Source: Escherichia coli
Lineage (GTDB): Bacteria > Pseudomonadota > Gammaproteobacteria > Enterobacterales > Enterobacteriaceae
Strand: one strand, 5' to 3'
Length of the DNA stretch: 64,000 bases
Assembly: GCF_022846255.1 (NCBI RefSeq)
Contig: NZ_AP025682.1
Under the pieces are notes generated by a model. That model made no database searches. It had not been told where the DNA came from and saw only the letters and a program-made list of their open reading frames with translations. The translations under genes and the position numbers were made by a program. Within the stretch, counting starts at the first letter, position 1. Each line of letters starts with the position of its first letter. Shown here piece by piece: positions 40,512 through 46,207 of this stretch.

Positions 40512-44576
<4,065 letters not shown>

Positions 44577-44672
44577 TGTTATCCCTCTGAAGTTCGTTTT
44601 TTACCATTTAGCCATAGTAAAAACATGAATTGTTTGATTTCGCGCATATTCGCTCATAATTCGAAAGTGAAA

Positions 44673-44738
44673 CGTGATTTCATGCGTCATTTTGAACATT
44701 CTGTAAATCTTATTTAATAATGTGTGCGGTAATTCACA
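44673..44738. promoter_or_regulatory. CRP-like sites in the glpACB/glpTQ divergent control region
   Basis: TGTGCggtaatTCACA at 44723..44738 is a near-consensus CRP site; weaker cGTGAtttcatgCGTCA at 44673..44689. Confidence 0.5.
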
Positions 44739-44848
44739 TTTAATTTCTGAATGTTTTCTTAACATCGCGGCAACTCAAGAAACGGCAGGTTCTCCCACTG
44801 AATCAGGCTGTTAATCATAAATAAGACCACGGGCCACGGAGGCTTTCA

Positions 44849-46207
44849 ATGTTGAGTATTTTTAAACCAGCGCCACACAAAGCGCGCTTACCTGCCGCGG
44901 AGATCGATCCGACTTATCGTCGATTGCGCTGGCAAATTTTCCTGGGGATATTCTTTGGCTATGCTGCTTACTATTTGGTTCGTAAGAACTTTGCGCTTGC
45001 TATGCCTTACCTGGTCGAGCAGGGATTCTCACGCGGTGATTTAGGTTTCGCGCTTTCTGGGATCTCGATCGCTTATGGATTTTCGAAATTCATCATGGGC
45101 TCGGTGTCGGATCGCTCGAATCCGCGCGTTTTCCTGCCCGCAGGTTTGATTCTGGCGGCGGCAGTGATGTTGTTTATGGGCTTTGTGCCGTGGGCGACGT
45201 CGAGCATTGCGGTGATGTTTGTACTGTTGTTCCTCTGCGGTTGGTTCCAGGGGATGGGGTGGCCGCCGTGTGGTCGTACTATGGTGCACTGGTGGTCGCA
45301 GAAAGAACGTGGCGGCATTGTGTCAGTGTGGAACTGTGCGCACAACGTCGGTGGTGGTATTCCGCCGCTGCTGTTCCTGCTGGGGATGGCCTGGTTCAAT
45401 GACTGGCACGCGGCGCTCTATATGCCCGCTTTCTGCGCCATTCTGGTGGCACTGTTCGCCTTTGCGATGATGCGCGATACCCCGCAATCTTGTGGCCTGC
45501 CGCCGATCGAAGAGTACAAAAATGATTATCCGGACGACTATAACGAAAAAGCGGAACAGGAACTGACTGCGAAGCAAATCTTCATGCAGTACGTGCTGCC
45601 GAACAAATTGCTGTGGTACATCGCTATCGCCAACGTGTTCGTTTATCTGCTGCGTTACGGCATCCTCGACTGGTCACCGACTTATCTGAAAGAGGTGAAA
45701 CACTTCGCGCTGGATAAATCCTCCTGGGCCTACTTCTTCTATGAGTATGCGGGCATTCCGGGCACCCTGCTGTGCGGCTGGATGTCGGATAAAGTCTTCC
45801 GTGGCAACCGTGGGGCCACCGGCGTCTTCTTTATGACACTGGTGACCATCGCGACTATCGTTTACTGGATGAACCCGGCAGGTAACCCAACCGTAGATAT
45901 GATTTGTATGATTGTTATCGGCTTCCTGATCTACGGCCCTGTGATGCTGATCGGTCTGCATGCGCTGGAACTGGCACCGAAAAAAGCGGCAGGTACGGCA
46001 GCGGGCTTTACCGGGCTGTTTGGTTACCTCGGCGGTTCGGTGGCGGCGAGCGCGATTGTTGGCTACACCGTGGACTTCTTCGGCTGGGATGGCGGCTTTA
46101 TGGTAATGATTGGCGGCAGCATTCTCGCGGTTATCTTGTTGATTGTTGTGATGATTGGCGAAAAACGTCGCCATCAGGAATTACTGCAAAAACGCAACGG
46201 AGGCTAA
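44849..46207 (+). CDS. glpT: Glycerol-3-phosphate:phosphate antiporter (MFS)
   Basis: 452 aa polytopic ORF; divergent from glpA. Confidence 0.92.

Follow-up and report, generated by a model that had tools for sequence, protein, structure and literature searches.

CRP, GlpR, FNR-like and putative IHF sites in the divergent glpTQ-glpACB control region of an Escherichia coli genome

Introduction

How are the regulatory sites between the divergent glpACB and glpTQ operons of Escherichia coli shared between the two promoters, and how many of them can be placed on the letters of a single genome? The architecture of this region has been known since 1992, and few promoters in RegulonDB are annotated as densely; release 8.5 assigns 21 binding sites of five transcription factors to glpTQ (PMC4280137). 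The role of each CRP site at each promoter has been called unsettled (PMC3105977).

We analysed a 64-kb stretch of E. coli DNA (hereafter the window), in which a sequence-only reading had proposed a control region between divergent glp operons, with one near-consensus CRP site, a second and weaker one, and half-sites of the GlpR type. Here, we compare these proposals with gene models, published footprints, and conservation across the Enterobacteriaceae, and weigh how the weaker CRP site and a conserved FNR-like site are best read.

Results

The spacer is the glpA-glpT intergenic region and closely matches that of K-12

According to the list of open reading frames, positions 44577..44848 are exactly the 272-bp non-coding gap from the start codon of glpA to that of glpT. 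The gene for the anaerobic glycerol-3-phosphate dehydrogenase subunit A, glpA (42948..44576, minus strand), matched NCBIfam model NF008313 with 1107 bits, in agreement with RefSeq, and the gene for the glycerol-3-phosphate:phosphate antiporter, glpT (44849..46207, plus strand), matched NF008433 with 976 bits. Downstream of glpA and on the same strand lie glpB and glpC, both matched by NCBIfam models, and glpQ (NF008354) is found downstream of glpT. All five genes are named by equivalog models with concordant RefSeq annotation, which, together with the exact gap, establishes the region as the proposed divergent glpACB/glpTQ spacer. An 801-bp query spanning the gap matched 5419 of the 5426 complete E. 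coli genomes, with 100% identity to one strain and ~98.5% to most, and every match was annotated glpA/glpT. The spacer has a lower G+C content than the window (37% versus 52%). It ends in the ribosome-binding block of glpT, CCACGGAGGCTTT (44834..44846, plus strand; conservation 0.84), whose Shine-Dalgarno sequence GGAGG occupies 44838..44842. A search of 44300..45100 against Rfam revealed no credible RNA family.

In E. coli K-12 MG1655, the spacer is also 272 bp long, and the ungapped alignment (K-12 coordinate = 2397223 minus window coordinate) showed 267 of 272 identical positions, five substitutions and no indels. The substitutions (window/K-12) are 44701 C/T, 44730 T/C, 44747 C/A, 44795 C/T, and 44845 T/A. 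None of them affects the core halves of the CRP sites, the quoted GlpR operators, or either -10 hexamer; position 44730 falls into the N6 spacer of the stronger CRP site and one of the five lies within the IHF-protected leader. The window thus has the same flanking genes and spacer length as the glpTQ-glpACB region described for K-12 (Larson, Cantwell & van Loo-Bhattacharya 1992; Yang, Gerhardt & Larson 1997), and shares with it the CRP-footprinted sequence and the relative spacing of the GlpR operators. Conservation values given below for the Enterobacteriaceae are from an alignment of 37 sequences, namely the window and 36 spacers of other Enterobacteriaceae species.

A footprinted CRP site lies at class II distance from the glpT -10 hexamer

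The near-consensus CRP site of the sequence-only reading, TGTGCGGTAATTCACA (44723..44738, centre 44730.5; hereafter site 1), has a single core mismatch. A search for TGTGA-N6-TCACA with at most one mismatch returned three matches in 64 kb compared to 1.76 expected, so that site 1 is unremarkable at the scale of the window. The match is meaningful only because of its position within the spacer, where the chance of finding such a match in 272 bp is ~0.007. Both core halves are conserved at 0.92 among the 37 Enterobacteriaceae, compared to 0.46-0.56 for the flanking segments. In K-12, DNase I footprinting showed that cAMP-CRP protects ~25 bp with the K-12 version of the site, AATGTGTGCGGCAATTCACATT, at about -30..-52 of the glpT start and over the -35 position, and glpT promoter activity was undetectable in crp and cyaA mutants (Kurabayashi et al. 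2017, PMC5352689). The footprinted sequence, AATGTGTGCGG(C)AATTCACATT, is present at 44719..44740 of the window with one spacer substitution; when the published site sequences were searched in literature text, PMC5352689 was the sole match. The proposed site is therefore borne out by its single core mismatch, its footprint, and its conservation.

Downstream of site 1, the glpT -10 hexamer TAACAT (44760..44765, plus strand) is conserved as TAnnAT at 0.88 in the 37 Enterobacteriaceae. Its first base is 29.5 bp from the centre of site 1, a spacing typical of class II activators. At CRP-dependent promoters of this class, such as galP1 and melR, CRP is centred near -41.5. The glpT promoter resembles them in the 29.5 bp between the CRP centre and the -10 hexamer, in having no recognisable -35, and in its absolute CRP dependence (PMC5352689); it differs from them in that each CRP site of the spacer is promoter-proximal for one promoter and located at about -90 for the other. 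The glpT start is at about 44770..44772, with an uncertainty of 2 bp (geometry gives ~44772, the numbering of PMC5352689 gives 44770), which places site 1 at approximately -41.5 of glpT and -90.5 of glpA. We infer the exact start sites of both genes in this map: they would lie back to back, ~132 bp apart, with glpT starting near 44770..44772 (plus strand) and glpA near 44640 (minus strand). According to this arrangement, cAMP-CRP at site 1 would overlap the -35 position of glpT, activate it by a class II mechanism, and be essential for its expression.

A simple sigma-70 scan recovered neither the glpT nor the glpA promoter, as expected for activator-dependent promoters. Its sole report in the spacer, TTGAAC-18-AATAAT (44692..44721), lies inside CRP and GlpR sites and was regarded as an A+T-rich chance match. 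We also rejected an inverted repeat around site 1 (44695..44706 and 44744..44755) as a GlpR operator pair: it is unconserved, and its half-sites are not spaced as in a 20-bp operator.

Published GlpR operator positions cover the probable glpA promoter

The whole 64-kb window was scanned with the 20-bp GlpR consensus WATGTTCGWTAWCGAACATW, which we take to be that of Zhao et al. 1994, and matches within the spacer were listed from 11/20 upwards. Eighty 20-mers in 64 kb reached at least 13/20, four of them in the spacer compared to 0.34 expected. Of these, the match at 44721..44740 is CRP site 1 itself. The other three start at 44589, 44629, and 44681 and are 40 and 52 bp apart, which is exactly the operator spacing in a passage of PMC3050690 that quotes Larson 1992 and gives GlpR sites at -60..-41, -28..-9, -8..+12, and +33..+52 of glpACB. 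On the basis of this agreement, the published +1 of glpA corresponds to 44640 and the -28..-9 operator to 44649..44668. A start at ~44600 as the reference for the operator numbers was rejected, since it matched ~35 of 80 consensus positions compared to ~52 of 80 for 44640 (hand count); only the 44640 start puts the three strongest 20-mers into published slots.

With this register, and with operator coordinates that are second-hand through the quoting passage of PMC3050690, the -60..-41 operator is CATGCGTCATTTTGAACATT (44681..44700; 13/20) and the -28..-9 operator is TTCGCTCATAATTCGAAAGT (44649..44668; conservation 0.77). The latter overlaps the glpA -10 and is a weak consensus match (~10/20 by hand count), under the listing threshold. 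The -8..+12 operator, ATTGTTTGATTTCGCGCATA (44629..44648), is the best match in the spacer (15/20; conservation 0.88), and the +33..+52 operator, GAAGTTCGTTTTTTACCATT (44589..44608), scored 14/20. The glpA -10 hexamer would be GAATAT on the minus strand (44646..44651), with the start at ~44640 derived from the fit of the four published operators to the scan; among the Enterobacteriaceae it varies between GAATAT, GATTAT, and GAATTT.

The half-site singled out by the sequence-only reading, TTTTGAACATT (44690..44700), forms the right half of the -60..-41 operator known from the literature. Its wider suggestion of ATGTTC/GAACAT half-sites stands for this example, whereas only one exact hexamer of this type exists within the spacer. 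The pentamer ATGTT/AACAT occurs four times compared to 0.5 expected, an expectation that ignores the 37% G+C of the spacer. The AATGTT and TAACAT words at 44750..44765 are part of the glpT -10 region and lie outside the traceable published operators. The reading had overlooked the bulk of the operators, which cluster over the glpA promoter (44589..44668), as well as the FNR-like site at 44634..44647.

Bound to the four 20-bp operators between 44589 and 44700, GlpR would cover the -10, the start, and the early leader of glpA and so repress it directly. Repression of glpT would act at a distance, probably by looping and with the help of IHF bending in the glpT leader. Glycerol-3-phosphate relieves GlpR repression (PMC4790336), and in this scheme it would release GlpR from its operators. 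The layout resembles glpD and glpFK, which are likewise controlled by the DeoR-family regulator GlpR, in its multiple 20-bp operators, some of them contiguous, that match WATGTTCGWTAWCGAACATW at 13-15/20, and in additional remote operators acting at a distance. In contrast to glpD and glpFK, the operators here crowd the glpA side, glpT is repressed from ~100 bp, and one operator doubles as an FNR-like site.

An IHF match lies in the glpT leader

Quoting Yang 1997, the passage of PMC3050690 places IHF sites at +15..+51 and +193..+227 of glpT. The first of these corresponds to 44786..44822 and contains the IHF consensus match AATCAGGCTGTTA (44801..44813), which agrees with eight of the nine specified positions of WATCAANNNNTTR. 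This match is poorly conserved outside Escherichia (0.36). Stimulation by Fis has also been reported in the literature.

Distant orthologous spacers keep an FNR-like site and a near-invariant block

The FNR-like site TTGAT-TTCG-CGCAT (44634..44647, centre 44640.5) is nested in the -8..+12 GlpR operator. Kurabayashi et al. named this sequence as the FNR motif and found that FNR(D154A) protects ~70 bp (~44617..44686 in window coordinates), starting at a distance of 32 bp on the upstream side of the CRP footprint; they also reported FNR binding upstream together with anaerobic enhancement (PMC5352689). FNR would bind in this area, including TTGATTTCGCGCAT, and raise anaerobic expression. Compared to TTGAT-N4-ATCAA, the site in the window has three mismatches, and such a motif is common by chance, as 47 matches with at most two mismatches were counted in 64 kb. 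The corresponding site has one mismatch (TTGATAAGGAACAA, TTGATAAAGAGCAA, and similar sequences) in 24 of 54 other loci in which glpA lies beside glpT, and its TTGAT half is near-invariant. In a comparative-genomics study, an FNR site was assigned to glpABC in most of the gamma-proteobacterial genomes compared.

Towards glpA, the block CATTTAGCCA (44605..44614; TGGCTAAATG on the minus strand) is near-invariant, with the highest conservation of the spacer (0.96). On the glpA strand its broader form is TGTGGCTnAAT, and in most of the 54 loci the gap between it and the FNR-like site is fixed at 19 nt, with varying sequence but constant length. Conservation within the spacer is thus highest not in the CRP sites but in the pair formed by the FNR-like site and TGGCTAAAT, whose 19-nt separation is kept across Enterobacterales.

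This pair recurs in Yersinia, Serratia, Dickeya, Pectobacterium, Edwardsiella, and Providencia, where an FNR-like/GlpR block of the form ...TTGnTCnnnnATCAAACA... and TGTGGCTnAAT keep the same mutual distance and, as in the window, a TG(T/C)GC-N6-TCACA site lies upstream of glpT. Their spacers differ from the window in length (303-594 bp versus 272 bp), in an upstream CRP site that is a near-perfect palindrome and lies 60 bp instead of 40 bp from the FNR-like site, and in an FNR-like site with one mismatch instead of three.

Alternative readings of the weaker CRP site and of the conserved pair

The motif matches could be chance products of A+T-rich intergenic DNA with no regulatory meaning. The low G+C content of the spacer, the 1.76 CRP cores expected per 64 kb, and the failure of the sigma-70 scan to recover either promoter speak for this. 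However, it is already refuted, and we give it practically no credence: published footprints fall on the same bases (PMC5352689; the quoted part of PMC3050690), conservation is block-wise, with 0.88-0.96 in sites and 0.36-0.56 between them across the 37 genomes, and the published operator spacing is reproduced exactly. The weaker CRP site of the sequence-only reading, CGTGATTTCATGCGTCA (44673..44689), is a closer case. Read with N6 spacing as CGTGATTTCATGCGTC (44673..44688, centre 44680.5; hereafter site 2), it becomes CGTGA/GCGTC with five of ten core positions mismatched; it was absent from the CRP core scan at up to two mismatches and, judged by its own letters, is indistinguishable from chance. 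If site 2 does not work in E. coli, site 1 alone would give catabolite control of both operons, and the conservation of site 2 would reflect the overlapping GlpR operator at 44681..44700, FNR binding, or the -35 region of glpA. This would fit the single region, site 1, that CRP protected at 20 pmol, with no second region seen, and the FNR(D154A) protection, which reaches to ~44686 and so over most of site 2 (both PMC5352689). It would also fit the right half of the site, which overlaps the -60..-41 operator and is conserved at only 0.66. In contrast, the left half is conserved at 0.81 as CGTGA or TGTGA, and its GTGA is of the CRP type and not the TTGA of FNR. Exactly 50 bp separate the centres of the two CRP sites, and the centre of site 2 lies 29.5 bp from GAATAT on the minus strand (44651..44646), at about -40.5 of glpA and -91.5 of glpT. 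Tandem CRP sites are reportedly located at about -41.5 and -91.5 of glpT and -40.5 and -90.5 of glpA, in work attributed to Larson 1992 and in RegulonDB, which fits this map. In addition, an upstream CRP palindrome with no or one mismatch (for example TGTGATCAAAGTCACA) is found in Yersinia, Serratia, Dickeya, Pectobacterium, Brenneria, Edwardsiella, Providencia, Moellerella, and Limnobaculum, with Serratia marcescens as the one exception (two mismatches), and reviews and a genomic SELEX study describe several or multiple CRP sites in the glpA-glpT spacer (PMC3105977, PMC4790336). We therefore consider a non-working site 2 unlikely. The claim of a weaker CRP site is upheld by position, by left-half conservation, and by the orthologues, but not by the sequence of the site itself or by the single-region footprint of 2017. 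A working site 2 would hold for glpA the position equivalent to that of site 1 for glpT, and may activate glpA by a class II mechanism.

The map leaves FNR activation of glpA unexplained, because with transcription starting at 44640 the centre of the FNR-like site coincides with +1, a non-activating position. This makes a second, FNR-dependent class II promoter of glpA attractive, with a start near 44599, ~40 bp downstream of the mapped one. FNR at 44634..44647 would then be located at -41.5, TGGCTAAAT (44614..44606, minus strand) would be a candidate extended -10, and the GlpR operator at 44589..44608 would cover the start. Several of the comparative data suggest such a promoter, namely the single mismatch of the FNR-like site in the 24 loci, the constant 19-nt gap to the TGTGGCTnAAT block, the spacer-wide maximum in conservation of that block, and the FNR regulation of glpABC predicted in most gamma-proteobacterial genomes compared. 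The area also lies within the FNR(D154A) protection (PMC5352689), and the distance from the centre of the FNR-like site (44640.5) to the first base of the hexamer CTAAAT, which follows TG-n, is again the 29.5 bp of class II promoters. On the other hand, this hexamer (CTAAAT, CTCAAT, or CCCAAT) does not have the near-universal A at position 2. The 20 bp around the FNR-like site are also a footprinted GlpR operator, and, since the GlpR consensus overlaps that of FNR, GlpR alone could explain why the site is conserved. The block may instead act at the RNA level or bind another protein in the glpA leader. The start-site and ChIP data of Ettwiller 2016, Kim 2012, and Federowicz 2014 contain no entry for these coordinates or genes, and thus no start-site record near 44599. 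Myers 2013 and Park 2013 do not mention glpA or glpT in their main text, and the Myers 2013 data show a ChIP peak of FNR at glpT/glpA in the hns stpA mutant alone. Taken together, the conserved pair points to a second glpA promoter as a tentative reading, which we hold to be possible but on balance doubtful.

Discussion

Our analyses show that the 272-bp spacer is very probably the classical E. coli glpTQ-glpACB divergent control region, with two activator-dependent sigma-70 promoters, sites for CRP and GlpR, an FNR-like site, and a putative IHF site. The feature is real and already known as a textbook control region. Our own observations are the identity of the genes, the distances from site to -10 hexamer, and the sites themselves, with their register and conservation. 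The footprints of CRP and FNR, the coordinates of the operators and of IHF, and the finding that glpT depends on CRP are derived from the literature.

The interpretation given in the sequence-only reading is supported. All three strings that it quoted are present at their positions, and its own proposed check, a comparison with published footprints, placed neither the operators nor the CRP footprint at different coordinates (PMC5352689; PMC3050690 for the part that quotes the operators). The principal GlpR and FNR elements, however, lie to the left of the features that it had highlighted. Its confirmation serves chiefly as a positive control, in which a CRP site and a GlpR half-site, both of them real, were read off the raw sequence.

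If the second glpA promoter is real, FNR-dependent transcription would begin downstream of ~44640, the CRP-dependent start, and the GlpR operators would have a second role as elements that compete with FNR and cover the start. For the biology of E. coli, the region matters because it sets the amount of the GlpT transporter and, in turn, glycerol-3-phosphate uptake and fosfomycin susceptibility (PMC4790336, PMC5352689).

Conserved elements within the glpA-glpT spacer

The highest conservation in the spacer between glpA and glpT was found at 44605..44614 (0.96 across 37 Enterobacteriaceae), a block that reads TGGCTAAATG on the minus strand. In most of the 54 loci in which glpA lies beside glpT, the FNR-like site (44634..44647 in the window) precedes this block, read in the direction of glpA, at a constant distance of 19 nt. 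The block is a candidate for the extended -10 element of an FNR-dependent promoter or else for a leader element.

A conserved TTGTCAT-N6-TGTAACAAT segment lies immediately upstream of the glpT CRP site (44723..44738) in most species outside Escherichia, for example in Citrobacter (L005) and Yersinia (L050), at the position corresponding to 44701..44722. This segment forms a direct repeat, TGTCAT/TGTAAC, with a spacing of 11 bp, and resembles an ArcA- or CpxR-type response-regulator site. The corresponding Escherichia sequence is divergent and reads CTGTAAATCTTATTTAATAA, including GTAAA-N5-TTTAA.

The same CRP site is flanked by a 12-nt inverted repeat (44695..44706 and 44744..44755; 10 of 12 positions complementary). 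Two of the five differences from the K-12 spacer, at 44701 and 44747, both extend this repeat, raising the number of matched positions from six to ten. No conservation of the inverted repeat was observed in other species, and it may have arisen by chance. Scanning for the sigma-70 consensus returned TTGAAC-18-AATAAT as its sole match (44692..44721, plus strand, 9/12), directed toward glpT with a start that would fall within the CRP site; this is probably a chance match in A+T-rich sequence.

GlpR-like sequences in the coding regions and lineage of the window

GlpR-consensus 20-mers were also detected inside glpT, at 45054 (12/20) and 45078 (13/20), and inside glpA, at 44183..44202 (13/20). Those in glpT together span 45054..45097, approximately +283..+326 of glpT, and the second quoted IHF site (+193..+227 of glpT) ends shortly before them. 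If GlpR exerts 'action at a distance', which implies remote operators, the coding-region 20-mers may be those operators; GlpR-consensus matches of this strength are common, with 80 per 64 kb.

The source of the window is an uncommon E. coli lineage: of 5426 complete E. coli genomes, only 3 match the segment 44300..45100 at 99% identity or more, and the rest match it at 95-99%. Its GlpT protein is identical to those of the GTDB representatives of E. coli and E. whittamii (L002, L003).

Promoter layout and gene arrangement in other genera

A near-consensus version of the upstream CRP site (44673..44688 in the window) is present in Dickeya, Providencia, Edwardsiella, Pectobacterium, Yersinia, Serratia, Brenneria, Moellerella, and Limnobaculum (L031, L036, L037, and L047-L078). 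In these genera, spacers measure 303-594 bp and the upstream CRP site is separated from the FNR-like site by 60 bp instead of 40 bp; the extra 20 bp is as long as a single GlpR operator. Their promoter architecture is remodelled, with retention of the FNR-like/TGGCTnAAT module.

Approximately 25 of the 80 glpT loci lack glpA within 2.5 kb upstream (L029, L030, L035, L038, L041-L044, L049, L052, L053, L055, L056, L060, L065, L067, L069, L071, L072, L074, L075, L077, and L079-L081), including loci from Pantoea, Erwinia, Xenorhabdus, Photorhabdus, Rahnella, Hafnia, and Arsenophonus; L063, which ends 61 bp upstream of glpT, is uninformative on the presence of glpA. Enterobacterales therefore do not all share the divergent arrangement of glpT and glpA.
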